From NCBI GenBank assembly GCA_963796055.1, contig CAWCKH010000004.1, positions 1,792,001 to 1,856,000 of the forward strand: a stretch of 64,000 nucleotides of DNA, in the 5' to 3' direction. The first letter of the stretch is position 1. Each line of letters begins with the position of its first letter. Below the pieces are notes generated by a model. The model ran no database searches. It was not told the origin of the DNA and was given only the letters and a program-made list of their open reading frames with translations. This stretch comes from an uncultured delta proteobacterium (GTDB taxonomy: Bacteria > Myxococcota > Myxococcia > Myxococcales > Myxococcaceae). The position numbers and the translations under genes are program-made. This document shows, piece after piece, positions 7,617 to 32,922 of the stretch.

Positions 7617-8570
7617 ATGGTGCCGTCCGGTCCGATGCGGGTTCCCGCGGTGAGAGCCGGCGCGCTGCGCGGCGAGGCCTACGGCGTCGTCTTCGAGGTC
7701 CGGGTGGACGACCGCCGGCTCCTGCCCGCGGTGCGTGTGCGCTTCCCCCCGGGCTGGAACGTCAGCCGGCAGAGTCCAGCGGTCGTCCTCTCCCTGGTGC
7801 ACGAGGTGCTGCAGGAGGTGTTTGACACCTCCCCCCGGACGGCGGGGCCGTCGCGGCGGACGGGGGGTTCGCGCGGGAGGTCCCGGCCGGTGGTCGGTCT
7901 GTCCGTGCGAGTGGACGGGCAGCGGGTGGCCCGCGGGTTCAGCCATGCGCAAGCCCTGGACGTGCTCGAGAGCGAGCTGCAGCTCACGGTTGCCCGGCTC
8001 GCCCGCCCCGAGGTGTTCGTCCACGCCGGTGTGGTGGCGGTGGACGGGCGCGCCATCCTGGTTCCGGGGCGCTCCGGTGCGGGGAAGACCACCCTGGTGC
8101 GCGCGCTGGTGGAGGCCGGGGCAACGTACTACTCGGATGAGTACGCGGTGCTCGACCGGGAGGGGCGTGTGCATCCGTACGCGCGCCGTCCGAGCGTCCG
8201 GCGGCGGGCTGGACACAAGGAGCGGCACCCGGTTCCGCGGGTCAGAGGTCGCGGGCCGGTTCCGGTGGGGATGATCGTCGAGACGCGGTACTCGACCGGT
8301 GCCCGCTGGGACCCCGTGTCACTGTCGCCGGGCGAGCGCGTGCTGGCGCTGCTGGCGAACACCGTGCCGGCGCGGGATCGCCCGGCCGAGGTGCTCACCG
8401 TGCTGGCGCGTGCCACCGAGGGGACCCTCGGTGTCCGGAGCGACCGCGGCGCGGCGAAGCAGACTGCCCGGCTGCTCATCGCGCTCGCCCGGAGCTCCGA
8501 TGGGCTGGAGCGCGTCCGTCCGCCGAGACCTGCACCTCGAACTGCCGGAGGGCGGAGTCGCCGGCCCTGA
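7617..8570 (+). CDS. HprK-related P-loop kinase
   Basis: FVHAGVVAVDGRAILVPGRSGAGKTTLVRAL...YYSDE (HAG, Walker A, SD[D/E]). Start at 7617 or 7635. Confidence 0.8.
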   Translation: MVPSGPMRVPAVRAGALRGEAYGVVFEVRVDDRRLLPAVRVRFPPGWNVSRQSPAVVLSLVHEVLQEVFDTSPRTAGPSRRTGGSRGRSRPVVGLSVRVDGQRVARGFSHAQALDVLESELQLTVARLARPEVFVHAGVVAVDGRAILVPGRSGAGKTTLVRALVEAGATYYSDEYAVLDREGRVHPYARRPSVRRRAGHKERHPVPRVRGRGPVPVGMIVETRYSTGARWDPVSLSPGERVLALLANTVPARDRPAEVLTVLARATEGTLGVRSDRGAAKQTARLLIALARSSDGLERVRPPRPAPRTAGGRSRRP

Positions 8571-10609: not shown

Positions 10610-10692
10610 GTGCGGCGCGAACCCTGATCTGGGCGCGGCGTCCAGGTCAATCAAACTTCCGTGTTCGGATCTGACAGATTGCAATCGAGGTG

Positions 10693-13794: not shown

Positions 13795-13798
13795 GGAC

Positions 13799-16576: not shown

Positions 16577-17029
16577 ATGGCCTCATCCCTGGGCTTCGTT
16601 CCGCGGCGGCGGCCGAGCGGACTGGTCAGCGAGCACCTCGACGGTGAGGTGCTGCTGTATGTCGAGGCGACGCACAAGGCGTTCTGTCTCAACCCGGCGG
16701 CGTCGCGGGTCTGGGAGTCGATCGACGGAGCGCGGGACGTCTCGGGCATCGCCCTGCGCACCGCGCTCGATCCGGAGCTGGTCGGCGGCACGCTGCGGGA
16801 GATGGGCGAGGCGGGGCTGCTGGAGGAGGTGCCGGAGCTCCCGGGCGTGGATCTGTCGCGGCGGCGGCTCGTGCGCGCGGGGCTGGTGGCGATCCCGTTC
16901 ATCCTCGCGATCACCGTGCCCCGCGCGGCGGAGGCGGCGTCGTGCGTCACCGGCCTGCCCGGTACACCCTGCGATGACACCCACACCTGCTGCGTGGGCA
17001 TCTGCAACGCCGGGTTCTGCAAACAGTGA
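16577..17029 (+). CDS. PqqD/RRE domain fused to a twin-Arg leader and six-Cys peptide (putative precursor, copy 1)
   Basis: EVLLY...CLNPAASRVWESIDGAR (PqqD-like), then LSRRRLVRAGLVAIPFILAITVPRAAEAA and SCVTGLPGTPCDDTHTCCVGICNAGFCKQ. Confidence 0.8.
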   Translation: MASSLGFVPRRRPSGLVSEHLDGEVLLYVEATHKAFCLNPAASRVWESIDGARDVSGIALRTALDPELVGGTLREMGEAGLLEEVPELPGVDLSRRRLVRAGLVAIPFILAITVPRAAEAASCVTGLPGTPCDDTHTCCVGICNAGFCKQ

Positions 17030-18117
17030 AACTGGACGAGGCACTGGCGCTGGCGATCGCCGGCGCGCTGCGAAGAGCCTGGGCTGACCCCGGTCCACCC
17101 CGCGTGCCGGCGGTGGACGTTCGACGCTGGGCCGAGCGCTTGGTCGAGGGTGGTGTCGCAGGGCTCGCGTGGTGGCGCATCAAGAACACCGAGATGGGGA
17201 CGCTCGCCCAGCTCTTACCGCTGCGCGCAGCGTTTCAGCACCACGCCCTGACGGCGGCCAGGCAGGAACGCGATCTTCCGCATCTTCTGGCTCACTTCAA
17301 TGCCGAAGGGATCGAGCCGATCCTGTTCAAGGGGTGGACCCTCGCGCGACTCTATCCGCACCGCGCGCTCCGTCCGTTCGGTGACTTCGACCTGCTGGTG
17401 CGGGAGTCCGAGGTCGATCGGGCCCGCACGGTTCTGCGCTCCCTCGGACCGGACCTTCAGTCGCGGGCCGATGTAGACACCGCGCGGACGCTGGCGCGCT
17501 ACCTGCCTGATCGAACGGAGGCCGAACTCTTCGGCCGTGCCCGCTCGGAGACGGCCGGTGGTGCTCGGCTCAGGACGCTCGCCGCCGAGGACCACCTCCG
17601 TCTGGTGACGCTGCACCAGCTTCATCACGGGGCCTGGCGGCCGCTGTGGCTGTGTGACGTGGCGTTGTTGCTCGAGGCGCTCCCAGCGGAGTTTTCCTGG
17701 GAGCGGTGCCTCGCAGGCGATCCACGGCTGAGTGAGGGTGTACTGGTCAGCGTGGCGCTCGCGCACGAGTTGCTCGGAGCGACCATTCCGCGCGGAGTGC
17801 CGCAGGTGGCGGTCCCCCGCTGGCTCCGACGTGCGGTGTTCCACGGATGGGCGCATGGCTACGAGAGCATGCCCCCGTCGCTGTACGACCTCCGGAAGCT
17901 GGGGTGGCCAGAGGCGGTGACGGCAATCCGCGCGCGGTGGCCGGATCCGGTGAGCGCGACGGTGCATCTTCGCGCTCCGTTCCGAGCCGTGCCGCGTCCC
18001 GTGGTCCAGCTCACGGAGTGCCTGCGCCGGGCGGCGGCTTTCGTCCGGCGTGATTTGCGCTGGCGTGCGGGTCTGGACGCGCAGCTTGCAACTGTCGGCA
18101 AGGGGGTTGTGCCGTGA
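17026..18117 (+). CDS. Nucleotidyltransferase family protein (NTP_transf_5-like), copy 1
   Basis: GIEPILFKGWTLARLY, RPFGDFDLLV, DHLRL...H, LWLCDV; GTGA-coupled to both neighbours. Confidence 0.82.
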   Translation: MKLDEALALAIAGALRRAWADPGPPRVPAVDVRRWAERLVEGGVAGLAWWRIKNTEMGTLAQLLPLRAAFQHHALTAARQERDLPHLLAHFNAEGIEPILFKGWTLARLYPHRALRPFGDFDLLVRESEVDRARTVLRSLGPDLQSRADVDTARTLARYLPDRTEAELFGRARSETAGGARLRTLAAEDHLRLVTLHQLHHGAWRPLWLCDVALLLEALPAEFSWERCLAGDPRLSEGVLVSVALAHELLGATIPRGVPQVAVPRWLRRAVFHGWAHGYESMPPSLYDLRKLGWPEAVTAIRARWPDPVSATVHLRAPFRAVPRPVVQLTECLRRAAAFVRRDLRWRAGLDAQLATVGKGVVP

Positions 18118-21100
18118 CTGCCTGGAGGGCCCTGAGGGCCGCGCTGCTCATGGTGGCGGCGGCTAGCAGCCCGAGTCTTGCGCAGGTGACCTGCCCCATT
18201 GGGGCGAGCACGTGGCTGGACGGCGCGGGCTCGTGGGTGACCGGAACGAACTGGAATCCGACGGGGGTGCCAGCCCCGAGCGCCGATGTCTGCTTCGATA
18301 CTTCCACGGCCAACCCCACGCTCGCGGCCGGGACCACGACGGTGGGGACGCTGAACGTGCTGTCCACGGGGACCCTCACGTTGACCGGTGGCTCTCTCCG
18401 CAACTTCACGATCAACGGCGGGATCAATGCCGATGGTCCGTTCACCTTCAACAGCATCACCAATGTCATTCCCTCGGCGACTCAAAGCTGGGTGATCAAC
18501 GGGTTCGGAAGCACATTCAATTCTCCGCTATCGGTGCCGGTCCTGACTGCCGCGACGACAACGATCAACGTCACCGGGATCGCTGACCTCACTTTCAACG
18601 TGGCCGCCCCTCGGGGATTTCAGGCGTTCAACTGGGGCGCAGGCGTCCTGACCCTGACGACCAATGGGCTTGGATCAGGCACTCCGATCACCTTGAGTGG
18701 CGCGAATGCGGCACTCCTCGTCAGCTCGACGGCTGCACTGACTCTCGACAATCCCGTCATCGCCACTGCCTCCGGAGAGTTGTTGGCAGTGGACGGAGCG
18801 AGCGGTGTTCAGCACGCGCTCGGGCGTGTGACGGTCTCACCAGGCGTGACGCTCCAAGAGTTGCTGGGGGGCACGAACAACGTCAAGCTCCAGCTCGGTG
18901 GTCTCACGCTCGGCGCGGGCTCGACACTCCTGAAGCAGGACTTCGGCGGCATCTATGTCAATGGGAGCGTGTCCGACACGGCGAGCAGCACGCTGACTCT
19001 GTTCATCGGGTTCACGACCCCCACTGGCTCGCAGCTGGACGAGGGGCTGCACTTCCAGTCGAGCACGACGGTCAACTCGATCATCTCCTCCACCGCGAGT
19101 TTGAACTCGGCGATGGTCGGCGCGGACGGGGCCACCACTCTGACCCTCGCCGGTGTGGTCGATGTGGGGAACGCCGGCCGCCTGATCCTCATCCCCCGGG
19201 GCGGGGCCACCATCCTGTTCGGTCCTTCCTCGTTCAATGCACCGGGCAATCCGAACGACATCCAGCTCCGCGGCACCGCTGGCAACACCGTCGAGTTCAC
19301 CAACGCGGCGGTGACCGCGAACGCAGTCACGGTGTACGACGGGCTCAGTTTCCAGACCGACGCCAACCCACCGCCACCGACGGTCACCTTCTCCACCACG
19401 AGCGGAGCGACCTGGCGGGTTCGTAACGCGGCTCAAAGTCTCCCCGGAGCGCTCACGCTCAACGCCGCTGGGACCGTGGACACGGGAACCGATCTGACCA
19501 TCACCGGGGTGCTTGCCGGGTCCGGAGCGCTCACCAAGACGGGTGCTGGTTCGTTGACCCTCGGGCCGGGGACCCATACCCACAACGGTGGAATCACCGT
19601 GAACGCCGGGACGCTCGAGGTGGACGGAACGCTCACTGGTGAGAACACCATCAGCATCAACAACGGTGGTGGGCTCGCAGGTGCCGGGACGCTGCAGTCG
19701 GGCACCGGGCCGATCACCGTGGCAGCGGGCGCGCGCTACACGCCCGGCAGCGGCGGCACCGGAATACTCGCGACCAATGACCTGAGCCTCAGCGACACCT
19801 CGGTGCTGAACTTCACCGTGGGCACACCGACGACTACGGGTTCGGTCACCGGGGCGCTGCTCCTCGACGGCATCCTCAACATCACGCAGGGCCCGGGCTT
19901 CGCCCAGGGCGTGTACACGATCTTCACCGCGACCGCCGCGATCACCAACAACGATCTTCGTCTGGGCACGGTGCCCACCGGTTTCTCCTACGGCTACGCG
20001 GTCAACGGAAACCAGGTCGAGCTGCACGTCGGTCCGCCCCCCACGGCCGTCGAGATGGTGAAGTCCGATGCCGTCAGCGACGGCAGCTCGGCTCAGGTCG
20101 CCTGGGAAGCAGGGACCGAGGTGCGGAATCTCGGCTACCGCGTGTACCGGGAAGAGAACGGCCGTCGTCAAGAGATCAGCGGACTGATCGCCGGCTCATC
20201 GTTACGGGCGGGATTCGACCCCCTCGCCGGCCGCAACTACGGCTTTGTTGACCCGAGCGGATCGTGGGGAGCCCGCTACTGGATCGAGGCCATCGGTCTG
20301 GACGGGAAGAGCCAGTGGTTCGGGCCGGTGAACGCTCGGCGTGGAGACTTGCCCCAGACGCGTGTGCAATCCGCTGCGCTCGTGGCAAAGGTCGGGGCGT
20401 CGGCGCTGGTCGCCTCCGTTGAACGGCCCAGCGCTCGCCAGGTGGACCCACCGGGTGTCGATCGCTCTTGGCGAGATCCGAACCTGAGGCGACAGTGGGA
20501 GATCGCGGCCAGCTCGACTGCGGTGAAGCTCCTCGTCCATCAGGACGGCGTGTACCGGGTCAGCGCAGACCAGCTCGTCCAGGCCGGCCTTCCTGCGGGG
20601 ACTCCGCTCGGCTCGCTGAGGCTCTGGTCGGGCGGTAGCCCCGTCGCGTTCCGCGTGGTCGGGAATGCTGTCGAATTCTTCGGGCAGGCCGCGGACACCC
20701 GGTACACCGACACCCGGGTGTACTGGCTCACCACTGGGCTGGGCCAACCGATCTCGATCAAGGCGGCTCCGACGGCGAACGCCACGGGCGCAGCCGGCAG
20801 CTTCCTCGAAACGCTCGAGATTCGCGACCGTACGCTGTACCTCGCGGCACTCCTGAACGCAGAGACGGATGGCTTCTTCGGGGAACCGCTCATCGGAACG
20901 AGCCCGATGGAGCGCGTGTTCTCCACTCCTGCGCTGGCGGTGGTGGCGAGCGACCCCGCCGTGCTGGAGGTGAGCGTCCAGGGGCTCACCAACGGTAACC
21001 ACACGATCGACGTCACCGTGAACGGGCTCGTCGTGGGGACCGTCCACAGTGTGTTCCAGGACGTGGCGAAGGCCCGCTTCATGGTTCCGCCTGGGCTGCT

Positions 21101-22598
21101 GGTGGCGGGAGACAACAAGGTCACCCTGGTTGGGCGCACTAGCTCCGAGATCGCGATCGAGATCTCGCAGCGGCTCACCTACCCACGTCAGTACATTTTG
21201 GGTGGCCCGCTCCGTTTCACGGCTCCGACTGGATTGGCGCTGACGCTCGCCGGCGCGGACGCATCCACTCACGTCCTCGACATCACCAACGTCCTCTCCC
21301 CTGCGGCCGTCGCGCTCACCAGCACTTCGGGAGGGGCGCGTCTGATCGCTAGTGGCTCGGGTACACGCATCCTCTACGCCTACCGCGATTCCGACGTGCG
21401 CTCTCCCGCCTGGGTGCAGAACGTCTCGAGTGCCTGGCACAACTCCAGCGGCGCCGATCTGGTCATCATCGGTCAGCGGGATCTCCTACCGAGCCTCCGT
21501 CCGCTCGCGGAACAGCGGGCGAGTGAGGGCTTGAAGGTCGCGCTGGTCGACGTCACTGACGTGTACGACGAATTCTCTGCGGGCGAGAAGGATGCGATGG
21601 CCATCCGCGCATTCCTCTCGGCGGCGATGGAGCGGTGGTCGACGCCGCCCCGCTTCGTGCTTCTCGTCGGATCGGCCACCTTCGATCCGCGCGGCTGGCT
21701 CGGACAGCCGGAGCTCGACCAGGTCCCGACGGTGCTGGTGCAGACTCGCTACCTCGAGACGGCATCGGATGACGCACTCGTCACCTTCCACGGCACCGTC
21801 CCTGACTTGGCGATCGGGCGGCTACCGCTCTCCACGCCAGCGGCGATGGAAGCGGCTGTGGCAAAGATCGTCGGGCGCAAGCTGGCGGGCGGCGAGGACA
21901 CGCTGCTCCTGATACGCGATCGGGACGGCACCATCTCGTTCTCCGCAGCCTCAGCCGAGGTGCGGGCTGCAGTCTCAAGCTGGAAGGCGCAGGACTTCCC
22001 ACGCGGCGCCGATGACGCCGCTACTCATTCCGCCCTGCTTGACGCACTTCGCAGTGGTCCGATCGCCGTCGACTACCAGGGTCACGGAGCGGAGGACTTC
22101 TGGGCCGGACGGATATTGGCGTCCACGGATGCCGATGCTCTGGCCGGTGCCGGCACGAGTTCGCTCGTGGTCGCCGCCACGTGTCTGAACGCGTACTTCC
22201 TGGACATCGGTCGCGAGAGCTTGGGCGCCGCGATGCTCAGGACCCCAGAAGGCGGCGCCTGGGGCGTCTGGGCGTCCTCCGCCCTGACACTTCCAACCGA
22301 CCACGCGCTGCTGAGCAAAACGCTGCTCTCCGCGGTGCTGAACGACGGGATGACGCTCGGGGAGGCGACCCTCAAGGCCAAGCAGGCGGTGAGTGATCTC
22401 GACGTTCGTGCCACCTTCCACCTCCTCGGCGACCCGAGCGCCCGGGCCGTGGCCACGCGGAGCTCTGCACTCACGATCTCGAAGCCGAAGAGCTCCTCGG
22501 CCGGCGGCTGCAATACCCCGGGTGGTCCGCTCTCGGCGCTGGCGCCGCTGGTCTTGGCCGTCCTGGCGCTCTCGCTCCGCCGCCGCTCGGTCTCCTGA
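18114..22598 (+). CDS. Secreted beta-helix / C25 (gingipain-like) cysteine peptidase with MYXO-CTERM-type tail, paralog 1 (1494 aa)
   Basis: Signal peptide; autotransporter-type repeat LTKTGAGSLTL; VYDEFS, RFVLLVG, ASDD, IGRLP, YQGHG, ATCLNAYF, LLGDPS; tail GGC-linker-TM-RRR. Confidence 0.85.
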   Translation: MTAWRALRAALLMVAAASSPSLAQVTCPIGASTWLDGAGSWVTGTNWNPTGVPAPSADVCFDTSTANPTLAAGTTTVGTLNVLSTGTLTLTGGSLRNFTINGGINADGPFTFNSITNVIPSATQSWVINGFGSTFNSPLSVPVLTAATTTINVTGIADLTFNVAAPRGFQAFNWGAGVLTLTTNGLGSGTPITLSGANAALLVSSTAALTLDNPVIATASGELLAVDGASGVQHALGRVTVSPGVTLQELLGGTNNVKLQLGGLTLGAGSTLLKQDFGGIYVNGSVSDTASSTLTLFIGFTTPTGSQLDEGLHFQSSTTVNSIISSTASLNSAMVGADGATTLTLAGVVDVGNAGRLILIPRGGATILFGPSSFNAPGNPNDIQLRGTAGNTVEFTNAAVTANAVTVYDGLSFQTDANPPPPTVTFSTTSGATWRVRNAAQSLPGALTLNAAGTVDTGTDLTITGVLAGSGALTKTGAGSLTLGPGTHTHNGGITVNAGTLEVDGTLTGENTISINNGGGLAGAGTLQSGTGPITVAAGARYTPGSGGTGILATNDLSLSDTSVLNFTVGTPTTTGSVTGALLLDGILNITQGPGFAQGVYTIFTATAAITNNDLRLGTVPTGFSYGYAVNGNQVELHVGPPPTAVEMVKSDAVSDGSSAQVAWEAGTEVRNLGYRVYREENGRRQEISGLIAGSSLRAGFDPLAGRNYGFVDPSGSWGARYWIEAIGLDGKSQWFGPVNARRGDLPQTRVQSAALVAKVGASALVASVERPSARQVDPPGVDRSWRDPNLRRQWEIAASSTAVKLLVHQDGVYRVSADQLVQAGLPAGTPLGSLRLWSGGSPVAFRVVGNAVEFFGQAADTRYTDTRVYWLTTGLGQPISIKAAPTANATGAAGSFLETLEIRDRTLYLAALLNAETDGFFGEPLIGTSPMERVFSTPALAVVASDPAVLEVSVQGLTNGNHTIDVTVNGLVVGTVHSVFQDVAKARFMVPPGLLVAGDNKVTLVGRTSSEIAIEISQRLTYPRQYILGGPLRFTAPTGLALTLAGADASTHVLDITNVLSPAAVALTSTSGGARLIASGSGTRILYAYRDSDVRSPAWVQNVSSAWHNSSGADLVIIGQRDLLPSLRPLAEQRASEGLKVALVDVTDVYDEFSAGEKDAMAIRAFLSAAMERWSTPPRFVLLVGSATFDPRGWLGQPELDQVPTVLVQTRYLETASDDALVTFHGTVPDLAIGRLPLSTPAAMEAAVAKIVGRKLAGGEDTLLLIRDRDGTISFSAASAEVRAAVSSWKAQDFPRGADDAATHSALLDALRSGPIAVDYQGHGAEDFWAGRILASTDADALAGAGTSSLVVAATCLNAYFLDIGRESLGAAMLRTPEGGAWGVWASSALTLPTDHALLSKTLLSAVLNDGMTLGEATLKAKQAVSDLDVRATFHLLGDPSARAVATRSSALTISKPKSSSAGGCNTPGGPLSALAPLVLAVLALSLRRRSVS

Positions 22599-22783
22599 GG
22601 CCGGACGTTGTGAACCGGCGCGCTCTGCGCCGTGGGTCACCACCGACTTGGTGGCCCGCGCCGACCCCGCATCCCACCTCTGCGGGGAATGTCGGACCGC
22701 GTCGGCAAACTACCGACTGAACTTCGAGCTCTCTCCATGTCGTCGACGCGCAGAGGCGCTTTCTCGACGGAGCGTCGGAGTGT

Positions 22784-22811
22784 CTGCGAGGATGCGGGCA
22801 TCGATTCTGCA
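22784..22811 (+). promoter_or_regulatory. Putative sigma54 (-24/-12) promoter
   Basis: GG(22797-98)-N10-GC(22809-10) within CTGCGAGGATGCGGGCATCGATTCTGCA; a near copy occurs at 28862. Confidence 0.55.
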
Positions 22812-22823
22812 CCCTGACCCTTG

Positions 22824-23279
22824 ATGCCGAACCGACCCAAGGCCCGGACGGACCAGCTCCTCGTCCAGAGAACTGGACAGGACACCCTGGTCTACGACGA
22901 GCGGACCCACCGGGCGCACTCCCTCGATGCGAGGGCGGCACGGGTGTGGGAGCTCTGCGACGGCGCACGGACCGAGCCCGAGATCGCGCAGGCTTACGGC
23001 GAGGGCGCAGCAGGCGAGGCGGTGGTGAGCTGGACGCTGGCAGCGCTTGAGAAATCCGCGCTCCTCGAGGACGACAGCGGAGTGGAGGCGCGGGCGGCAC
23101 TGAGCCGGCGGGCGCTGATGAGGACCGTCGGGCTCGCGGCGATCCCGGTCATCATGGCGATCACCGCTCCGCGGGCGCGGGCGGCCGTGTCGAGTTGCTC
23201 GAACGGTGGGCAGCAGTGCTCGACGAAGCCGTGCTGCCCCATGTTGACCTGTGACACCCAGACCTTCACCTGTCAGTGA
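22824..23279 (+). CDS. PqqD/RRE domain fused to a twin-Arg leader and six-Cys peptide (putative precursor, copy 2)
   Basis: TLVYDERTHRAHSLDARAARVWELCDGART, then LSRRALMRTVGLAAIPVIMAITAPRARAA and VSSCSNGGQQCSTKPCCPMLTCDTQTFTCQ. Confidence 0.82.
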   Translation: MPNRPKARTDQLLVQRTGQDTLVYDERTHRAHSLDARAARVWELCDGARTEPEIAQAYGEGAAGEAVVSWTLAALEKSALLEDDSGVEARAALSRRALMRTVGLAAIPVIMAITAPRARAAVSSCSNGGQQCSTKPCCPMLTCDTQTFTCQ

Positions 23280-24280
23280 CCGCGGTGGCACATCCCCTGG
23301 CGATGGCGTTGCGCGACACCTTCCGCACCCAGGCGGTCGGGCCGATGTCGCTCGCCCCTGAGCTCGTCCGCTCTGCCGAAGTGACTGGAGTCGAGGCGCT
23401 GCTGCTGCGGCGTCGAGAGGACGTGCCATCCGGGACGGAGCGCTTCCAGAGTCTGGAGTACCTTCGTCGCGAGCGCTGGCTGGCCTCGGTCTTCACCGCG
23501 CTCGAGTCCCACGGAATCCGGGCGGTCACGTTCAAGGGCTGGGCTCTCGCCCGCCTCTACGGCCGACCCGGGCTGCGGCCGGTCGGCGACGTGGACCTCG
23601 CCGTCCGTCCCGAAGACTTCGGACACGCGCGGACGGTACTCGCCGCCTTCCAGGGCGAGAACGAGGTCGATCTCCAGTCGGACCTCTCGCGGTACCTTCC
23701 TGACCGGAGCCCGGAGGCGCTGCTGACCTGCGCCCAGGCCGTCGAGGTCGCCGGTGGTCACATCCAGGTACTGGGTCCCGCCGACCACCTCCGTCTGGTT
23801 TGTCTCCACCAGCTCCACCACGGATCCTGGCGGCCTCTTTGGCTGTGCGACGTGGCGGTGCTGCTCGAGTCATTGCCGGCGGACTTCTCCTGGGCGGAGT
23901 GCCTTCATGGGAGCCGGCACCTGGGAGAGGGCGTGCTCGCCTGCGTGGGTCTCGCCTGCGAATGGCTGGGCGCAAGACCGACGGTGCCGCCGCCGGAGGC
24001 CGTCGTCCCGGAGTGGTTCCGCCGTGCGGTCGGGAGTGCATGGGACCGGGGCTACCGTCCGTCTCCGGAGCGGCTCGAGGGCATCTCGCTGGCCCGGCTT
24101 CCAGAAGCGCTCAGGGCACGCTGGCCGGATCCACTGTCCTCGACGCTCCATCTGGACGCACCTTTCCACCGGGTACCGAGACTGCCGATCCAGGTTGCGG
24201 AGCTGGTCCGCCGCAGCTCGCGCCACGCCGTCCGCCGGTGGCGGTCGCGCGGAGCGGGGGTGGGAAGGGGGGAGTCGTGA
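23276..24280 (+). CDS. Nucleotidyltransferase family protein (NTP_transf_5-like), copy 2
   Basis: FKGWALARLY, RPVGDVDLAV, DHLRLVCLHQLHHGSWRPLWLCDV; clear paralog of 17026..18117. Confidence 0.82.
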   Translation: MTAVAHPLAMALRDTFRTQAVGPMSLAPELVRSAEVTGVEALLLRRREDVPSGTERFQSLEYLRRERWLASVFTALESHGIRAVTFKGWALARLYGRPGLRPVGDVDLAVRPEDFGHARTVLAAFQGENEVDLQSDLSRYLPDRSPEALLTCAQAVEVAGGHIQVLGPADHLRLVCLHQLHHGSWRPLWLCDVAVLLESLPADFSWAECLHGSRHLGEGVLACVGLACEWLGARPTVPPPEAVVPEWFRRAVGSAWDRGYRPSPERLEGISLARLPEALRARWPDPLSSTLHLDAPFHRVPRLPIQVAELVRRSSRHAVRRWRSRGAGVGRGES

Positions 24281-27200
24281 GAAGACTGATTCCGTTCGCG
24301 TTGCTTGCAGTCGCACTGGCTGCGCCACGGGCGCATGCCGTCGCCAAAACCTGGAACGGCAGCGTCAACATCCAGTGGAACAACGGCGCCAACTGGACGC
24401 CCGCCGGAGTTCCGACCGCCGCGGATGACGTGACGATCAACGTCCCAGGCACGGTCCGGATCTCGAACAATCCGATCGCCGCCGATGCGGTCGCAGCATC
24501 GCTGACCATCGGTGCGGCGGTCACGATGAATCGCGGCAACGGCCACATCCTCACCGTGACCAACGGCATCAATGTCAACTCGACCTCTGACGTGTTGATC
24601 CAGGTGCCGTTCACCGCGGCGAGCCTGAGCAAGAGCGGCACCGGAAATCTGACCCTGAACGGAGCCGCCCTGTCCGGGACGACGCCGCAGGTCAGCGGGA
24701 CGGTCGACGTGACCGGCGGGACACTGACCCTCAACGGCGGGAACGATCTGACCACCGGCGGAGCGGTGAACGTCAGCACGGGCGCGACCCTGGCTCGCAA
24801 CGGTGCCGGCTTCCTGAACGCGGGTGGAGCGGTGACCGTCGATGGAGGAGCGATGACCTTCGCCGCCGGTGGTGGTCTCGCCGCCAGTGCGACGGTCACC
24901 GTCATGGGCGGGGGAACCGTGTCCTTCGCCGGAGGCGGCGGTCTCACCTCGGGCGGCGCGGTGACCGTCACTGGTGGGACGATGAGCTTCGCGGCCGCTG
25001 GTGGTCTCACCTCGGGCGGAGGAGTGAACGTCACCGGCGGAACGATCACCTTCGCTGGCGGTGGCGATCTCGCATCGGCGACTTCGATGGTCACCGTGGG
25101 GGCCGGCGGCACTCTGGCATTTCCCGGCAATGCCAACCTCGGCGCGGGCGACGTGATCGTGAACGGCGGAATCGTCTCCTTTGGCGGGAACGGAGATCTC
25201 ATTGCCACCGGAGGAGTGACGGTGACCGGAGGAGGGAGTCTCTCCTTCGGTGGGAACGGCGACATCACCGCTCAGAGCTTCACGCTGGCCTCGGGCTCGT
25301 CATTCACCTTGAACTTCGCCACCGGTGGCAACCCGACGAACATCAACCTCACCGGCGGGACCGGAGCCCTGGGCGGGACCGTCAACATCACCGGGACTCC
25401 GAACGCAGCCAGCTTCAACATCCTCACCGGTGCGAGCACGGTGGACATCACCGGGGTGATGCTCGGGAGCGCGCCGAGCGGATTGGCGTTCGGGTTCCGC
25501 CCACTGGGAACCAGCACCGTCGTGCTCGACGTGACGGTCAACCCCATCGCTCCGGATGGCACCGCCTCGGCCACTGGAAGCTGCCCGGGACCGATGACCT
25601 GGCAGCACACCATCTCCGCAACCGCCAACGACCGCTACCTGCTGGTCGGAGTGTCGACGGGCACCAGCGCCGTCACCCCGACGGCGGTGAGCTTCGGCGC
25701 CCAGCCAATGGGCCTCATCGCCAGCCGGGTCAATGGCAGCTCGGGCGCGTTCATCTATGGCCTGGTGGCCCCGGGGCGTGGAACGGGGACCATCACCGTC
25801 ACCCTCCCCGCAGGCCCATGCAGCGTGGTCGCCGGCTCGCTCTCGTATACGGGGGTCCTTCAGGCCAGCTCGACGGGCACCGCCGCCACCGCCGCGGGGA
25901 CGGGGACCAGCGCCTCGGCGTCGCCTTCGACCGTCCAGGGGGACAAGGTCATCGCCGTCCTGGCGTCCAACGGGGCCACCTCCGCGACCCCGCAGGCCGG
26001 AGCGACCGTCCGCTGGTCTGCGATCCAGGGCACGGTGCTCGGCGCGGGTGATACCGCGAGCCGCAGCGGGGCAGGCACTTTCAACGTGACCATGAGCTGG
26101 ACCCTGAGCCCGTCGAGCGAGTTCGCGCTCGCGTCGGTCCCCATCCATGCGGCAGCGCCCACTCGGGTGATGGAGATCGCGGCATCGGTTCGGCGCTCGG
26201 GGACGGCCCTGGCGGTGTCCGTGCGGTCTGGGCCCAGGTCGGACCTGGTGGGCTTTCGCGTGTGGCGCGAGGCCGCTGGGCAGCGTGAGCTCCTCACCCC
26301 AGGTCTGGTGGAGGGTCCGGTACTCACCTCACGGGCCAGCCTGCTGGCAGGCTCTGAGAGCGGCTGGGTCGATGCCCGACCCGTCCCCGGTGCGAACTAT
26401 CTGATCGAGGCGCTCCACCTCAACGGTCGGACCACCTGGTCGCGGGCGGCACCTGGCGCGGGTCCGGCTCCCCCCGTGGCCTCGGCTCTGCTGGCGTCGC
26501 CGGCCAGTGCGGTGGTGGTTCACCAGCCCGCGCTTCGCGTGAGCGCCGCCGAGCCCGTGTCTCGCAGATCCGCGCTGGTGATGCAGGGCACCCAGTGGCA
26601 GCTCGCCGCGGACGCCGCGGTGAAGATGAGGGTGTCCACGGCGGGCCTGGTCCGCGTCCCGGCCGAGCTGCTCTTCGCCGCCGGCATTCCCGTCGGTGCC
26701 GCGGCGTCCTCGATCCAGCTGTTCCGCGGTGGGCGCCCAGTCCCCCGGACCGTCGACGCCTCGGACGGCGTTACGCTGCGGAGCGGGGACGCAGTGGAGT
26801 TCTACGGCTACCCGATGGACACGCGCTACTCCGGCTCCGCCGTCTACTGGCTGACCGCAGGCAAGGGTGTGGGCGTGGAGGTCCCGAGCACCGGGTGGAT
26901 CGCGCCGGGCGCGGCCACCCGCTCGTATCTCGCCTCAGCCGAGGTCCGGGAGCGCCTCACCTGGTTTGGCGCCGCAAGAAACGGCGACGCCGAGAAGTTC
27001 TTCGGGCCGGCGGTCCACTCCACCGCCCGGCAGCGGACGATTCCGGTCGACGCCCTTGACGTCTCGGGGGCGGGGGCACGGCTCGAGCTCGCGTTCCAGG
27101 GTTTGACCGAGATCCCCCACGCAGTGTCGGTGAGCGTGAACGGCCTCCCTGTCGCCTCGGTGACCTTCGACGGGAATACACCCCATTCGGCGCTGGTCCC

Positions 27201-28761
27201 TCTTCCGCCGGGGACCTTGGTGGCCGGGGACAACACCGTCGAGCTGGTCGCGCCCGGCTCGGCGGACATCTCGCTCGAGCAGTACGTCCGGCTGGTCTAC
27301 CCGCGCTTCACGGTCCGCGGCTCGGGCGCGCTGGAGTTCACCCTCGCCGGAGGAGCTGCCACCCGCCTGGACGGCTTCGATCCGGGGCTCACCCGCGTGC
27401 TGGACATCACCGACCCGGACGCCCCCGTGCGCCTGACGACCTGGGACGAATCGGGAGCTGCGGCGGTGGCTGCACCAGGGTCGGGTTCCCGGCGGCTCTT
27501 GGCCTATCTCCCGACGGACGTGGCGTCCCCGGTTTCGGTGGTGGCCAATCGTCCCAGCAGCTGGCACTCCGCGGAGGGCGCGGACCTGATCATCGTGGGT
27601 CCGGCCTCGCTCCTCCCGGAGGCGCAGGCGCTGGTCGACGCGCGCAGGGCACAGGGCCTTTCGGTGGCGCTGGTGGATGTCGAGGATGTGCAGGACGAGT
27701 TCGCCTCCGGTGAGAAGAGCGCCGATGCCCTGCGTGGCTTCCTCCAGCAGGCGCTGGGGGCCTGGGCGCGGCCACCGCGCTACATTCTCCTGCTCGGCTC
27801 GGCCACCTATGACCCCCGTGACTACCTCAGGCTGGGCGGAGACCTGGTCCCCAGCGGCACCGTGCAGACCGAAGTGCAGATGAACGGGCAGACCGAGGCG
27901 CTCGAGGCAGCCTCGGACAGTTGGTTCCTGGGCGTCCCGGGTGCGGGGGCCCTTAGCATCGGGCGTCTTCCGGTGAGGACTGCGGAGGAGACCCGGGCAG
28001 TGGTGGCGAAGATCGTCGGGCGGCGGGATGCGGATGCGAAGGCGAACGTCCTGCTGGTCTCCGACCGTGCGGGGACCAGCGACTTCCCGGAGATGAGCGC
28101 CGACCTTCGGGCCGTGCTCCCGGACGCCCAGGCGACGGTGCTGGTGCGGGGGTCGGACACGGACCAGGTGCTGCACCAGCGGATGCTGGAAGCACTCCGG
28201 GCCAGTCCGGCCCTGGTGAACTACATCGGCCACGCCGCGGAGACGTTCTGGAGCGACCCCACCGCCCCCCTCTTCAGCGTCGACGACGTGTCCGCGGTCG
28301 CTGGAAACCAGCCCGGCTTGTGGATCGACATGAGCTGCCTCACCGCGTTCTTCCAGGATCCGCGTCGTCAGAGCCTGGACGTCGCGACCTTGTTGGCCTC
28401 CGAAGGTGGGGCCTGGGGCACCTGGGGCAGCACGGCGAAGACCTACCCGGGCGATCACGCAGGCCTGAATCGGGCGCTGGTGCGCGCGCTGCTGATCGAA
28501 GGGAAGACGCTCGGCGAAGCAACTCGTGACGCTCTCGCCTCCGCCACCGACCCGCAAGTGCAGTCGACGTTCGTGCTGCTCGGCGACCCGAGCGCCCGCG
28601 CCGTGGCCACGGCGGCGCTCGAGGTGGCCCCCCCGAAGCCGTCCGCCTCCTCCGGGTGCAGCGCGACTCCCGCTGGGTCCGGCACCCTGGCGCTCCTTGC
28701 CATCGGCCTCTGGTGGGCCGCGGCGCGACGCCGCGTCCGAGTGGGGGTCCGGCGCGAATAG
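24277..28761 (+). CDS. Secreted beta-helix / C25 cysteine peptidase with MYXO-CTERM-type tail, paralog 2 (1494 aa from GTG 24277)
   Basis: Signal peptide RRLIPFALLAVALAAPRAHA; VQDEF, IGRLP, NYIGHA, MSCLTAFF, LLGDPS; tail SGC-TM-RRR. The upstream part of ORF 23800 is shadow of the NTase gene. Confidence 0.85.
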   Translation: MRRLIPFALLAVALAAPRAHAVAKTWNGSVNIQWNNGANWTPAGVPTAADDVTINVPGTVRISNNPIAADAVAASLTIGAAVTMNRGNGHILTVTNGINVNSTSDVLIQVPFTAASLSKSGTGNLTLNGAALSGTTPQVSGTVDVTGGTLTLNGGNDLTTGGAVNVSTGATLARNGAGFLNAGGAVTVDGGAMTFAAGGGLAASATVTVMGGGTVSFAGGGGLTSGGAVTVTGGTMSFAAAGGLTSGGGVNVTGGTITFAGGGDLASATSMVTVGAGGTLAFPGNANLGAGDVIVNGGIVSFGGNGDLIATGGVTVTGGGSLSFGGNGDITAQSFTLASGSSFTLNFATGGNPTNINLTGGTGALGGTVNITGTPNAASFNILTGASTVDITGVMLGSAPSGLAFGFRPLGTSTVVLDVTVNPIAPDGTASATGSCPGPMTWQHTISATANDRYLLVGVSTGTSAVTPTAVSFGAQPMGLIASRVNGSSGAFIYGLVAPGRGTGTITVTLPAGPCSVVAGSLSYTGVLQASSTGTAATAAGTGTSASASPSTVQGDKVIAVLASNGATSATPQAGATVRWSAIQGTVLGAGDTASRSGAGTFNVTMSWTLSPSSEFALASVPIHAAAPTRVMEIAASVRRSGTALAVSVRSGPRSDLVGFRVWREAAGQRELLTPGLVEGPVLTSRASLLAGSESGWVDARPVPGANYLIEALHLNGRTTWSRAAPGAGPAPPVASALLASPASAVVVHQPALRVSAAEPVSRRSALVMQGTQWQLAADAAVKMRVSTAGLVRVPAELLFAAGIPVGAAASSIQLFRGGRPVPRTVDASDGVTLRSGDAVEFYGYPMDTRYSGSAVYWLTAGKGVGVEVPSTGWIAPGAATRSYLASAEVRERLTWFGAARNGDAEKFFGPAVHSTARQRTIPVDALDVSGAGARLELAFQGLTEIPHAVSVSVNGLPVASVTFDGNTPHSALVPLPPGTLVAGDNTVELVAPGSADISLEQYVRLVYPRFTVRGSGALEFTLAGGAATRLDGFDPGLTRVLDITDPDAPVRLTTWDESGAAAVAAPGSGSRRLLAYLPTDVASPVSVVANRPSSWHSAEGADLIIVGPASLLPEAQALVDARRAQGLSVALVDVEDVQDEFASGEKSADALRGFLQQALGAWARPPRYILLLGSATYDPRDYLRLGGDLVPSGTVQTEVQMNGQTEALEAASDSWFLGVPGAGALSIGRLPVRTAEETRAVVAKIVGRRDADAKANVLLVSDRAGTSDFPEMSADLRAVLPDAQATVLVRGSDTDQVLHQRMLEALRASPALVNYIGHAAETFWSDPTAPLFSVDDVSAVAGNQPGLWIDMSCLTAFFQDPRRQSLDVATLLASEGGAWGTWGSTAKTYPGDHAGLNRALVRALLIEGKTLGEATRDALASATDPQVQSTFVLLGDPSARAVATAALEVAPPKPSASSGCSATPAGSGTLALLAIGLWWAAARRRVRVGVRRE
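24715..25290 (+). repeat. About nine degenerate 21-22 aa Gly-rich coding repeats
   Basis: Units such as GGTMSFAAAGGLTSGGGVNVT, GGTVSFAGGGGLTSGGAVTVT and GGIVSFGGNGDLIATGGVTVT. Confidence 0.75.
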
Positions 28762-28861
28762 GTCGATTGACCGGGAAGGATCGCCGTGCTCTCGCGCGCC
28801 CGCCGCGCACACCTCGGTAGGTTCGGAGCGTCGACCGCATCCTCGACCGGGGCAGATCGCC

Positions 28862-28890
28862 CTGCGAAGATGCAGGGCATCGAACCTGCA
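28862..28890 (+). promoter_or_regulatory. Putative sigma54 (-24/-12) promoter
   Basis: GG(28876-77)-N10-GC(28888-89) within CTGCGAAGATGCAGGGCATCGAACCTGCA. Confidence 0.55.
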
Positions 28891-28905
28891 AACGGCTCGC
28901 CGCTG

Positions 28906-31900
28906 ATGTGGTCTCGAGACAGGCTCCACCGGCGGTGCGGCAGGAGCGCGGCCCGAAGGCCGAGCGCCCGTCGTCCCACGGCACTGCTCTCGTTGGGGCT
29001 GGCGGCAGCGGTGCTGCTGTCGACGGAGGTCCGAGCCGCCGCGGTGAATTGGCAGGCCGGAAGCGGCGCCTGGAACAACGGTGTCAACTGGTCGACGGGG
29101 ACCGTTCCGACCTCGAACGACGACGTCACCATCAATTCGGCGGTCACCGTCCAGGTGAACAACCAGGGCGGCAACGCGGTCGCCCGCACTCTCACCCTCG
29201 GATCGGGCGCGGCCCTGACCCGGGCGAACGGAAGGACGCTCGCGGTCGGTCAGGGCATCAACGTTGCCTCCGGCAACGCCACCCTGAACATTCCCTTCAC
29301 CGCCGGAACCCTCAGCAACACCGGTACCGGCACCCTGACCGTCGGCCAGTCCGGGACCGTGACCGGCAACGTCGGGGTGAGTGACGGGGGAACCCTCGCT
29401 TTTACCGGAACCGCCACTTTGGGCGCCGGAAGCTTCACCCTCGCATCGGGTTCGGCGCTGACCTTGAACTTCTCGAACACGACCACGGTCGCGCTCCTCA
29501 CCGTCTCGGGCAACGCGACGGTGGCCGGGACGCTGAACCTCACCGGCTCCACCCCCAGCCTCGCCGGAAGCCCGTACCACCTCGTCAGGTCCACCGGCGG
29601 CACGATCGACTTCACCGGGCTCTCGCTTGGCACCGTTCCGGGAGGCCGCACCTTCGGGTTCCGCGTCCTGGGAACCGACCTGGTCATGGATGTCACGCAG
29701 AACCCGATCGCGATCGACTCGGTCACCTCGACCACCGGGACCTGCGCCGCGGGGACAGTCAGCTGGCAGCACACCATCGGCGCCACGGCAAACGACCGGC
29801 TGCTGATCGTCGGTGTCTCGACCGGAAGCAACTCGGGCAGCGCGTTGCCCACCTCGGTGAGGTACGGGACCCAGACCCTGACCGCGCGAGGCGGAGACAA
29901 CGCCGGAACCACGCAGGTGCAGATCTACACGCTGCTCGCGCCTCCGCGGGGGACGAACACGGTGACGCTGACCTTTCCGGGAGGCAGCACCTGCTTCGCG
30001 GTTGCGGGCTCGGTCTCCTACACGGGTGTGAGCCAGTCCAACCCGATCGGCGGAGTGGTCAGCGACACCGAGACCGGGAACACCCCGCTGCTGGCGACCA
30101 TCGACGTGAACGTGCAGCCCCATTACAAGGTGTTCGCCGTCCTCTCCTCGAACACCGCGACGTCGGCCACCCCGGTCCAGTCGAACGTGACGGCGCGCTG
30201 GTCCGCGCTCAACGGGACCGAGTTCGGAACCGCCGAGACCCTGGCCTACGGGGGAAACAACAACACCACCATCACTCTCTCGTACAACATGGGCCCGCCC
30301 AGCTCGACCTTCTGGTCGCTCTCGGCCATGCCGATCCACCCGGCGAATCCAAACGCTGCGGCGCCACCCGCGCCCGTCGTCCGGTGGTCGGCCGGGGGTG
30401 CCGCGCTTTCCTGGAGCCTGGACGCCACCTCGGATGTGGTGGGCTTCCGCGTCTGGAGAGAGGCCGCTGGGCAGCGGGTGCTCCTCACGCCGGGGCTCCT
30501 TGCCGGCCCACTGCTCGCCAGCAGGGCGACATTGCTCGCCGGCTCGCAACCCGGATGGGTCGACCGGAGCCCGGTTCCGAGTGCCACGTACCTGGTCGAG
30601 TCACTGCACCGGGACGGAAGCACCCGCTGGACGCCCGCCGTCGCCGGCTCCGGTACGGCTCCTGCCCTCTCCTCGGAGCTCGTCGCGGTTTCTCCCTCGT
30701 CGCTGCTCCGTGCACTGCCAGGGCTGCGGGTCGAGCCTGCCGACCTTCCGGCGCTACCGCCGCGGCCTGGCTCCCGGGAGCTCCAGTGGGAGCTCGCCGC
30801 GGGCCACGCGGTCAAGCTTGTCGTCTCGCGGCCGGGTGTGGTCCGCGTGTCTGCGGAGTCGCTTTTCGCTGCAGAGATTCCGGTCGGAACTCCGGCTTCC
30901 TCGCTCCAGCTGTTCCGCGAGGGGCGCCCGGTTGGCCGCACCGTGCTCACCACAGACGGAGCAACGCTCCAGCCGGGCGACTCGGTCGAGTTCTACGGTC
31001 ATGGGATGGACACGCGGTACTCGGGCTCGGCGGTCTACTGGCTGACCACCGGAGCCGGACGAGGCAGGGAGATCCCAACGGTGTCGGCGCCGTCGCAGGG
31101 TGTCGACACCGGCTCGTTCATGGCCGCGACCGAGATCCGGGAGCGGTTGACCTGGTTCGGCGCGGCCCGGAACGGAGACGCAGAGAAGTTCTTCGGGCCC
31201 GCCGTGCACAGCCAGGCCCGCACGCGGACGATCTCCGCCGAGGGGCTCGACGTCGCCGGCAGCGGAGCGCAGCTGGAGGTCGCGCTCCAGGGCGTCACCG
31301 AGGTGCCTCACGCGGTCAACGTGAGTCTCAACGGTCTGTCGCTCGGAACCCTCTCGTTCGAGGGCGCGGTGCCCGGGCGGGCGACCTTCGGGGTGCCGCC
31401 TGGAGCGCTCATCCCGGGGGACAACGAGATCGAGCTGGTGGCGCCCGCCGCCTCCGACATCTCCCTGGAAGAGTTCGTCCGGCTGGTCTACCCGCGGCAG
31501 ACGCTCCGGGGCTCGGGTGCGCTGGACTTCAGGCTTCAGGGCGGGAGTGCCACGCTCCTCAAGGGCTTCGACCCCACGCTTACGCGGGTCCTCGATGTGA
31601 CCGACCCGGAGGCCCCCGTGCAGCTCGTCACCTGGGACCTCTCCAGCGACGCGGCGGTCGCGGCCCCCGGCTCGGGCCCTCGGCACCTGCTGGCGTACAT
31701 CCCGGGCGATACCACTCCTCCGGCGTCGGTGCGCGTCAACCATCCGAGCAGCTGGCACGCGGCCGAGGGGGCGGACCTGGTCATCGTCGGTCCGGCCGGG
31801 CTCTTCGGTGCAGTGAAGCCCCTGGTGGAGCGGCGGCAGTCGGAGGGGCTGCGGGTGGCCCTGGTGGACATCGAGGACGTCCAGGACGAGTTCGCCTCCG

Positions 31901-32922
31901 GGGAGAAGAGCGCCGAGGCCTTGCGCCGCTTCCTGGCCCAGGCGCTCGAGGCGTGGACGGTCCCGCCCCGATTTCTGTTGCTGCTCGGCGCTGCCACGTA
32001 CGATCCGCGGGACTACCTCGGGCTCGGGGGAGACCTCGTCCCCAGCGCGGTCGTCCAGACCGACGCGCTCGAGGCGGTCTCCGACAGCTGGTTCCTGGGC
32101 GTCTCGGGGGCCGAGTCAGTCTCCATCGGTCGGCTTCCGGTGCACAACGTGGCCGAGACCGAGGTCGTGGTGGCGAAGATCCTGAACCGCCGCGAGGGAG
32201 ACGCACGCTCGCCGGTGCTGCTTGCCTCCGACGCCCTGGGCACGAGCGACTTCCCGGAGATGACAGCGGACCTGCGCGCTTCCCTTCCCGATGCCGCAGC
32301 CACCGTGCTGGTGCGGGGAACGGATCCCGACGATGTCCTGCATCAGCGCTTCGTGGACGCCGCTCGGAGCGGCCCCGCCCTGGTCAACTACGCCGGGCAT
32401 GCGTCCGAGCTCTTCTGGAACGGCCATCTGCACTCCATCGAGGACGCCGAGACGCTCGCCGGGGGAGGCACGAGCCTCTGGATTCACATGACCTGTCTCA
32501 CCGGTTTCTTCCAGGATCCGCGACGGCAGAGTCTCGCCGTGGCGACTCTGCTTGCCCCGAGCGGAGGAGCCTGGGGCGCGTGGGGGAGCACGTCCATGAC
32601 GTATCCGACGGAGCACTCGGCGCTGAACCGGGCGCTGGTGAAGGGACTCCTCCTCGAGGGGAAGACCCTGGGCGAGGCGACGCGCGAGGCGCTGGCGGGA
32701 ACGACGGATGTGGACCTGGCAAACACCTTCGTGCTGCTCGGGGATCCGAGCGCGCGTGCGGTGGCGGCGAAGTCGTCGGCACTCAGGGTCAGCGGAAAGT
32801 CCTCAAGCGCGCTCGGCTGTAGCACCGCTGGTCACGGAACCGGCAGCCTCGCCCTGCTCGCGGCCGTGGCGCTTTGGCTCGCCCTTTCCCGAGGGCGGGC
32901 GATGGTCCTCGGAAAGCGCTGA
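28906..32922 (+). CDS. Secreted C25 cysteine peptidase with MYXO-CTERM-like tail, paralog 3
   Basis: Signal peptide ending TEVRA; NYAGHA, MTCLTGFF, LLGDPS; tail LGC-TM-RGR. Closest to paralog 2. Start uncertain (ORF opens at 28786). Confidence 0.85.
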   Translation: MWSRDRLHRRCGRSAARRPSARRPTALLSLGLAAAVLLSTEVRAAAVNWQAGSGAWNNGVNWSTGTVPTSNDDVTINSAVTVQVNNQGGNAVARTLTLGSGAALTRANGRTLAVGQGINVASGNATLNIPFTAGTLSNTGTGTLTVGQSGTVTGNVGVSDGGTLAFTGTATLGAGSFTLASGSALTLNFSNTTTVALLTVSGNATVAGTLNLTGSTPSLAGSPYHLVRSTGGTIDFTGLSLGTVPGGRTFGFRVLGTDLVMDVTQNPIAIDSVTSTTGTCAAGTVSWQHTIGATANDRLLIVGVSTGSNSGSALPTSVRYGTQTLTARGGDNAGTTQVQIYTLLAPPRGTNTVTLTFPGGSTCFAVAGSVSYTGVSQSNPIGGVVSDTETGNTPLLATIDVNVQPHYKVFAVLSSNTATSATPVQSNVTARWSALNGTEFGTAETLAYGGNNNTTITLSYNMGPPSSTFWSLSAMPIHPANPNAAAPPAPVVRWSAGGAALSWSLDATSDVVGFRVWREAAGQRVLLTPGLLAGPLLASRATLLAGSQPGWVDRSPVPSATYLVESLHRDGSTRWTPAVAGSGTAPALSSELVAVSPSSLLRALPGLRVEPADLPALPPRPGSRELQWELAAGHAVKLVVSRPGVVRVSAESLFAAEIPVGTPASSLQLFREGRPVGRTVLTTDGATLQPGDSVEFYGHGMDTRYSGSAVYWLTTGAGRGREIPTVSAPSQGVDTGSFMAATEIRERLTWFGAARNGDAEKFFGPAVHSQARTRTISAEGLDVAGSGAQLEVALQGVTEVPHAVNVSLNGLSLGTLSFEGAVPGRATFGVPPGALIPGDNEIELVAPAASDISLEEFVRLVYPRQTLRGSGALDFRLQGGSATLLKGFDPTLTRVLDVTDPEAPVQLVTWDLSSDAAVAAPGSGPRHLLAYIPGDTTPPASVRVNHPSSWHAAEGADLVIVGPAGLFGAVKPLVERRQSEGLRVALVDIEDVQDEFASGEKSAEALRRFLAQALEAWTVPPRFLLLLGAATYDPRDYLGLGGDLVPSAVVQTDALEAVSDSWFLGVSGAESVSIGRLPVHNVAETEVVVAKILNRREGDARSPVLLASDALGTSDFPEMTADLRASLPDAAATVLVRGTDPDDVLHQRFVDAARSGPALVNYAGHASELFWNGHLHSIEDAETLAGGGTSLWIHMTCLTGFFQDPRRQSLAVATLLAPSGGAWGAWGSTSMTYPTEHSALNRALVKGLLLEGKTLGEATREALAGTTDVDLANTFVLLGDPSARAVAAKSSALRVSGKSSSALGCSTAGHGTGSLALLAAVALWLALSRGRAMVLGKR

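Follow-up and report, generated by a model that had tools for sequence, protein, structure and literature searches.

Two myxobacterial precursor peptides with a fused RiPP recognition element and candidate knottin-like cores beside PorU-like C25 proteins

A 64,000-nucleotide stretch of the genome of an uncultured delta proteobacterium of the Myxococcaceae (GenBank assembly GCA_963796055.1, contig CAWCKH010000004.1, positions 1,792,001 to 1,856,000 of the forward strand; the whole stretch is called the window below) carries two 150-residue precursor proteins, in each of which a PqqD-type recognition element (RRE) for peptides that are made on ribosomes and modified after translation (RiPPs) is followed by a leader (SRR, a hydrophobic segment, Pro and Ala-x-Ala), a Ser and a six-cysteine core. 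We think it probable, with considerable reserve, that these precursors yield a self-chaperoned, exported, phosphorylated or phosphoglycosylated knottin-like RiPP whose tailoring enzymes are related to those of the linear polyphosphorylated peptides (LPP) and of the phosphoglycosylated lasso peptide pseudomycoidin. The original prediction for this DNA was built on the two cores; the fused RRE, an HprK-like kinase and two nucleotidyltransferases, which it left out, are what set the mechanism.

In the proposed pathway, the N-terminal RRE would bind the twin-arginine leader of its own chain, with the hydrophobic stretch as an extra strand on RRE strand 3, and this grip would delay export and present the Ser. 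By analogy with LPP and pseudomycoidin, the kinase would phosphorylate the Ser or Thr that stands at position +2 or +3 once the peptide is mature, and addition of a hexose to that phosphate would require the nucleotidyltransferase. The twin-arginine translocation (Tat) system would then export the modified C-terminal part, signal peptidase would cut at AxA, and periplasmic oxidases would form the disulfides Cys I-IV, II-V and III-VI after export. The least certain step is the last: the product may serve the cell envelope as a tag or handle rather than act as a weapon. Its likely partners would be the PorU-like C25 proteins encoded alongside, which in the simplest case would link their variable passengers to the new N-terminal amine of the peptide.

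Precursor architecture and sampling of the family

Precursor 1 (16577..17029, +; RRE at about residues 8-85, SRR leader from 16856) and precursor 2 (22824..23279, +; RRE, SRR leader from 23103) have coding-like third-position GC (0.91 and 0.86) and match the PqqD profile of Pfam at E 6e-4 and 2e-5, respectively. Their cores are the final 29-30 residues up to the stop codon: core 1 (16940-17026, +) reads C-X8-C-X5-CC-X3-C-X4-C (spacing 8,5,0,3,4) with a Ser immediately before Cys I, and core 2 (23187-23276, +) reads C-X6-C-X4-CC-X4-C-X6-C (6,4,0,4,6) with the conserved Ser before Cys I, both exactly as first predicted. The pattern of a conserved leader and a variable core was borne out in the comparison of the two paralogues, which are identical at 20/29 leader, 28/78 RRE and 11/29 core positions (6 of the 11 being Cys). 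The further claim that the loops differ almost completely is true of these two paralogues but not of the orthologues of each core, which are close (core 1 type in loci L088 and L092, core 2 type in loci L004-L029). The original prediction was also staked on conservation of the Cys among homologues, and each of the six was at least 90% conserved in 50 aligned homologues. A close homologue of the window precursors bears the source label Myxococcaceae.

Translation of the 5.53-Mb genome in all six frames contains five C-terminal C-C-CC-C-C patterns: three of them are RRE-leader-core precursors and the other two look like off-frame noise. The third precursor (G000:C4:704.9-705.3 kb; L001:9877-10335, -) overlaps the stop of a gene for a 1,858-residue C25 protein. 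The three precursors are the only PqqD matches of the genome, and all 4 of its full-length C25 genes sit at precursor loci.

Relatives were collected in two ways. A phmmer search gave 4,859 clusters (50% identity) at E ≤ 0.001 and 1,503 at E ≤ 1e-10, of which the best 150 representatives were analysed, a set biased to knottin-like cores. When species genomes were scanned with a single motif, 541 relatives came up, and the loci of the best 80 were analysed.

Leader recognition and export signal

A PqqD match at E ≤ 1 was found in 75/75 aligned members, which had been picked for six-Cys cores, and in a Foldseek search with an AlphaFold2 (AF2) model of precursor 2 the lasso RRE TbiB1 took ranks 1-5 and 6JX3 rank 7. 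An RRE is normally not part of the RiPP precursor that it binds, and lasso leaders add a strand to strand 3 of such separate RREs; here, unlike in usual RiPP precursors, RRE, export leader and core lie in one chain. The AF2 model places a strand at leader residues 111-114. In a covariation analysis of 249 precursors (about 210 effective sequences), H33, in RRE strand 3, and the leader residue A113 formed the top pair (3.4; next pair, 2.38); S79-I111 ranked fifth and the remaining top pairs lay within the RRE. A His at the H33 position is paired with Ser or Thr at the A113 position in 210/249 precursors. The H33-A113 covariation and the modelled strand fit a leader that adds a strand to RRE strand 3, and the RRE is thus predicted to grip the leader of its own chain.

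The leader consensus across the family is SRR-x-L..G..A..P..S/T..AP.AA.A.S, with RR in 246/249 precursors, and the window genome has tatC and a VKOR gene; the TAT_signal profile matched just 3/75 aligned members. The mean hydrophobicity of the 13-residue segment (2.3-2.6), together with weak winged-helix Pfam matches in some members, would also suit an uncleaved membrane anchor, that is, a bitopic sensor with a cytoplasmic RRE or winged-helix domain and a periplasmic Cys domain. We hold this to be quite improbable: a near-invariant Pro stands at either end of the segment, which is short, an Ala-x-Ala is conserved before the Ser, and both covariation and the model put the segment on the RRE as a strand. 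The tatC gene itself (G000:C4:2159759-2160853) was matched in two pieces of one 547-residue frame, i.e., with a long insertion.

A likely knottin-like fold of the cores

Judged by sequence and model, the cores are likely to adopt a knottin-like disulfide fold. Both have six Cys in C-C-CC-C-C order with spacing in the knottin range, and both models contain a predicted C-terminal antiparallel hairpin, as expected of knottins: core 1 modelled alone (pLDDT, the predicted local distance difference test, of 75.3) has a hairpin at E26-28/E31-33, and the model of full-length precursor 2 (pLDDT 87.9 overall and 95-97 over the core) has a strand pair in core 2. Small-peptide Foldseek matches included 6GFT (template modelling score 0.69 by target, root-mean-square deviation 2.2, E 0.65), 5EPM, 2N3P and 1I26, all of which we take to be cystine knots, presumably of the class of spider and conus toxins and sponge asteropsins. 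Structure prediction, which had been proposed as a check, thus delivered the hairpin and a confident model of core 2, while the knottin matches themselves were weak.

Cys counts across the family span 2 to 14 and are even in 142/144 Cys-bearing representatives among the best 150 and in 99/99 precursors from the best 80 scan loci. In a Cys co-loss test, 199 distinct short cores were reduced to 144 gap-free ones by dropping 55 with gaps; all six Cys were present in 115/144, and Cys I was absent in 6, of which 5 also lacked Cys IV, the joint loss that a I-IV bond predicts. Because of the even counts, this co-loss and the weak knottin matches of the model, disulfides are likely, and the idea of a bacterial knottin-like core on a leader-core precursor gains from the same three results.

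The alternative that the Cys bind a metal or an Fe-S cluster would explain the use of Tat, which usually carries cofactor-loaded cargo, and would make the RRE a proofreading chaperone; moreover, the adjacent resistance-nodulation-division (RND) pump resembles the heavy-metal CzcA/CusA type by sequence reading (Pfam gives only ACR_tran). Against metal binding, which we rate as very improbable, stand Cys counts that run from 2 to 14 and are even, the joint loss of Cys I and Cys IV, the existence of Cys-free cargoes and the lack of a CxxC motif in either window core; in addition, the RND block lies on the opposite strand and is absent between kinase and precursor in genome G276.

The C-C-CC-C-C frame had been described as mostly eukaryotic. 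A predicted lipoprotein of the window genome (L002; G000:C4:854418-856352, or 854.4-856.4 kb) consists in part of about 11 tandem copies of a six-Cys unit (C-x6-C-x5-CC-x3-C-xn-C), which argues that the frame is not exclusively eukaryotic. In contrast to the precursors, with their single terminal copy, this array has neither RRE nor leader. The protein passes the Conotoxin_I2 cut-off, so conotoxin-type matches reflect the Cys pattern. A second protein (C4:183980-185857, L003) ends in one copy of the lipoprotein's unit.

This bears on the suggestion that the cores diversified in the manner of venom knottins and act as diffusible toxins, antimicrobials or signals. In its favour are a conserved leader with a variable core, the presence of several paralogues in a genome, a nearby RND efflux block and weak Pfam matches at E ≤ 1 (Conotoxin 26/75, Toxin_12 17/75). 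The core loops, however, are mostly G, S, P, T and A with little net charge (within -2 to +2 in 50/61 cores) and conserve neither a basic nor an aromatic residue; orthologous cores are kept from strain to strain; the cassette showed no immunity-like gene; the lipoprotein has the same module as a tandem repeat; and the leader also carries Cys-free, collagen-like and Hint cargo. We therefore regard a toxin or signal as improbable, if less so than metal binding or a membrane sensor, and favour the exported, modified RiPP.

Candidate modification enzymes and acceptor residue

The HprK-like Ser kinase (7635..8570, +; start estimated, open frame from 7323) matches TIGR04352 at E 2e-17, below the cut-off, and PF07475 weakly, and keeps the HAG, P-loop and SDE motifs. 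Both precursor stop codons are overlapped by a PF14907 nucleotidyltransferase gene: nucleotidyltransferase 1 (17026..18117, +) overlaps that of precursor 1 through GTGA and has intact FKG and GDxD motifs, and nucleotidyltransferase 2 (23276..24280, +), at precursor 2, also keeps GDxD. The candidate acceptor lies seven residues after the second conserved Pro and would have position 2 or 3 in the mature peptide; it is Ser or Thr in 75/75 members of the six-Cys-selected set, in 138/148 precursors and in 80/99 of those from the best 80 loci.

Comparable enzymes have been described in two systems. In LPP, the HprK-like LppK phosphorylates S3 (PMC13381572, section 7). In pseudomycoidin, as PMC6993621 describes it, the HprK-like PsmK phosphorylates a Ser, and the phosphoserine receives one or two hexoses only if PsmN is present, an uncharacterised nucleoside triphosphate (NTP) transferase whose DxD is essential. 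A precursor with its kinase and nucleotidyltransferase would be a compact substrate for probing the chemistry of PF14907 enzymes. Among acidobacterial relatives, the C25-linked loci L154, L156, L166, L188, L189 and L205 share a conserved core type with Asn in place of the Ser/Thr.

PorU-like C25 proteins

Gene order in the window runs from precursor to overlapping nucleotidyltransferase to C25, with one C25 gene in cassette 1 and two in cassette 2. C25 protein A (18114..22598, +) comprises a signal, a beta-repeat passenger, an Ig-like domain, a PorU-like C25 domain (His 22083, Cys 22182) and a MYXO-CTERM-like tail. Protein B (24277..28761, +; likely start 24277, open frame from 23800) has an intact dyad and a weak MYXO-CTERM match, and protein C (28786..32922, +; start uncertain, perhaps 28906) has an intact dyad and a MYXO-CTERM-like tail. 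The general architecture is signal, variable passenger, Ig-like domain, C25 domain with His/Cys dyad and MYXO-CTERM-like tail; the tail is found on myxobacterial C25s and on none of those of Acidobacteriota.

By profile comparison (PorU E 4e-43 vs gingipain R 5e-20), the window C25 proteins are nearer to the PorU sortase than to gingipains, and the catalytic His/Cys dyad is invariant in 41/41 C25 sequences. The likeness to PorU, the type IX secretion system's sortase (PDB 6ZA2), covers the C25 catalytic region and a preceding domain. It stops short of the full-length architecture: on the PorU model NF033707 the window proteins score 144-172 bits, below the cut-off of 420, and their C25 domain is fused behind a variable passenger and an Ig-like domain. 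In a quick tree, precursor-linked myxobacterial C25s fell on one side of a branch (support 96) and their sub-lineages followed precursor types; myxobacterial and acidobacterial precursor-linked C25s are 33-39% identical over about 800 residues.

The original prediction offered the cores as possible inhibitors of the adjacent C25 cysteine proteases. Some knottins inhibit proteases, the linkage is tight in this genome (4/4 C25 genes at precursor loci), the C25 sub-lineages of the quick tree match the types of precursor, and one core type occurs in 18/23 C25-linked versus 5/57 other acidobacterial loci, a motif chosen post hoc among loci that, as kin, are not independent. An inhibitor is nonetheless very unlikely in our estimate, on a par with metal binding: the C25s are PorU-like rather than gingipain-like, the core loops lack a conserved P1-type residue, and 57 of the 80 family loci have no C25 within 10 kb. 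In a reverse test on 18 other Myxococcales C25 loci, a fused precursor was found in 0/18, and a match to a kinase, nucleotidyltransferase or stand-alone RRE in 7/18. C25s thus occur near kinase, nucleotidyltransferase and RRE genes where no fused knottin precursor is present, which argues that C25 travels with that chemistry and not with the knottin and favours the handling of a modified peptide over an inhibited target.

How such handling might work is suggested by PorU, which has been implicated in cleaving cargo and attaching it, through the amine of an N-seryl sugar, to A-LPS, the anionic lipopolysaccharide (PMC7468200). A phosphoglycosylated knottin tied to the envelope could be an amine acceptor for the PorU-like C25s, which would cut off and ligate their own passengers to the peptide. 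We put this forward as a speculative extension that is more apt to be wrong than right, if better placed than any of the competing explanations above. If true, it would be a protein-anchoring system outside Bacteroidota with a RiPP in place of the N-seryl sugar of A-LPS as anchor. More generally, the association suggests a job for PorU-like C25 proteins outside Bacteroidota.

C25 genes near genes for stand-alone RREs, radical SAM proteins, HprK-like kinases, nucleotidyltransferases and S24 peptidases were seen in other Myxococcales, at L231:7837-13800 and in L224, L227, L228, L233 and L239. In L231 a short precursor with three Cys, its leader bearing a YxPP motif, is encoded separately, and loci of this type look like an LPP-like radical-SAM system with a PorU-like partner.

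Family size, distribution and neighbours

The family comprises more than 1000 clusters at 50% identity, mostly from uncultured bacteria, and would amount to a natural library of bacterial knottin-like scaffolds; a literature search (openly available literature, with supplements outside its scope) returned no description of it. Among the best 150 representatives, 70 have the plain C-C-CC-C-C frame and 6 are without Cys (one a fragment, some collagen-like). Other cargoes on the same RRE-leader include a knottin-like core followed by a Hint domain (P0126) and a Cys-free, Gly-rich, collagen-like sequence (P0091, P0092 and P0195). Across 301 Myxococcales genomes, matches spanning leader and core were confined, among the matches listed, to genera g1, g6 and g20, the others being RRE-only.

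The best 80 scan loci are mostly from Acidobacteriota, with one record each labelled Nitrospinota and Clostridia and two unclassified. Within 10 kb of the precursor, a nucleotidyltransferase was found at 57/80, a kinase at 45/80 and a C25 at 23/80 (33, 29 and 16 of the 46 full-length loci); the next commonest neighbours were glycosyltransferases (20 and 18 loci) and an O-antigen ligase (13). At 26 close metagenome loci, some of them duplicates, the nucleotidyltransferase adjoins the precursor in 23/26, the 3 misses ending at most 60 bases from the precursor, and a C25 is present in 13, most misses being short contigs. At L131:10081-12105 (genome G176), the precursor is broken in two by a 451-residue opposite-strand open reading frame (ORF) resembling a transposase.

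Comparison with known systems

Like LPP of Bacillota, the system combines an RRE, an HprK-like kinase and an NTP transferase with no cyclase among the components reported; LPP also has a phosphorylated Ser near the mature N-terminus (S3), a position that is conserved here with predicted chemistry, and signal-peptidase-type cleavage, and it often lies in polysaccharide loci (PMC13381572). The two differ in that LPP, as described in the same article, has a discrete RRE, a leader motif YxxPxVLxHQ and a dedicated SpI peptidase with an MsbA-like exporter, whereas the present precursors include their RRE, have a leader of the twin-arginine/AxA type and come from cassettes in which neither peptidase nor exporter was found among the ORFs scanned. 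The present system also has a Cys-rich core and attached PorU-like C25 genes; the words twin-arginine, disulfide and C25 are absent from the main text of PMC13381572.

With pseudomycoidin the likeness lies in the pairing of a kinase with a DxD NTP transferase, GDxD being kept in both window enzymes; the modified Ser reported for pseudomycoidin is C-terminal (PMC6993621), whereas the candidate Ser here is N-terminal in the mature peptide. In the part of the genome searched, the scanned ORFs at 1 to 38 kb of the window, neither a lasso macrolactam cyclase nor a B2 peptidase was found, and any rigid fold would come from disulfides, unlike the rigidity of a lasso. Because of the fused RRE, the twin-arginine leader and the lack of a dedicated peptidase or cyclase, membership of both LPP and lasso classes fails; by analogy, the system appears to work like an LPP/pseudomycoidin-type tailoring set with a fused RRE and a twin-arginine leader. 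From inhibitor cystine knots, with which they share the C-C-CC-C-C frame, the C-terminal hairpin and weak structural matches, the cores differ in being bacterial and RRE-fused, with neutral loops and a predicted connectivity.

Points against the proposed pathway

Several results weigh against a self-chaperoned, Tat-exported and phosphoglycosylated knottin. The modification, export and product of the window precursors are predictions only. As to the fold, no Foldseek match reached E ≤ 0.001, sequence matches to knottins were at E ≥ 0.08 only, Cys IV was off its column (mostly shifted, not lost) while Cys I was present in 15/144 cores, and the Cys analysis excluded 55/199 cores for gaps. As to the leader, the sequences behind the covariation signal (~210 effective) overlap with those behind the AF2 strand, P0002 itself has His and Ala and not the common His and Ser/Thr, the usual Phe of Tat signals is replaced by Leu, Val or Met (Phe in only 9/249), and a Tat-type signal 90 residues inside a protein is unusual.

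As to the chemistry, the acceptor position is Asn in 9/99 precursors, acidobacterial ones, some of them beside a kinase and a nucleotidyltransferase. In section 7 of the LPP study, S3T abolishes phosphorylation, yet Thr is common in the present family, and lppN deletion is without effect (PMC13381572). As to the loci, the kinase of the window genome lies 9 kb from precursor 1, the third locus has no kinase or nucleotidyltransferase nearby, and a C25 is absent within 10 kb of 57/80 mostly acidobacterial loci (30/46 full-length ones).

Surroundings of the cassettes

Kinase and precursor 1 are set apart by an opposite-strand block (8652-16316, -) of a predicted membrane protein and a CzcA/CusA-like RND pump; a response regulator lies further upstream. 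A similar membrane-protein/RND block stands between kinase and precursor in loci L007 and L013. In genomes G276 and G102, as in genus g6, a kinase orthologue lies immediately upstream of the precursor. Genus g6 has a different RND pump, located upstream of the kinase on the same strand. Near the start of the window, a biotin synthase is apparently split over two frames (158-2689 and 936-1520), the first part being in frame with a downstream bioF-like aminotransferase; the split appears to be a frameshift or an assembly error.

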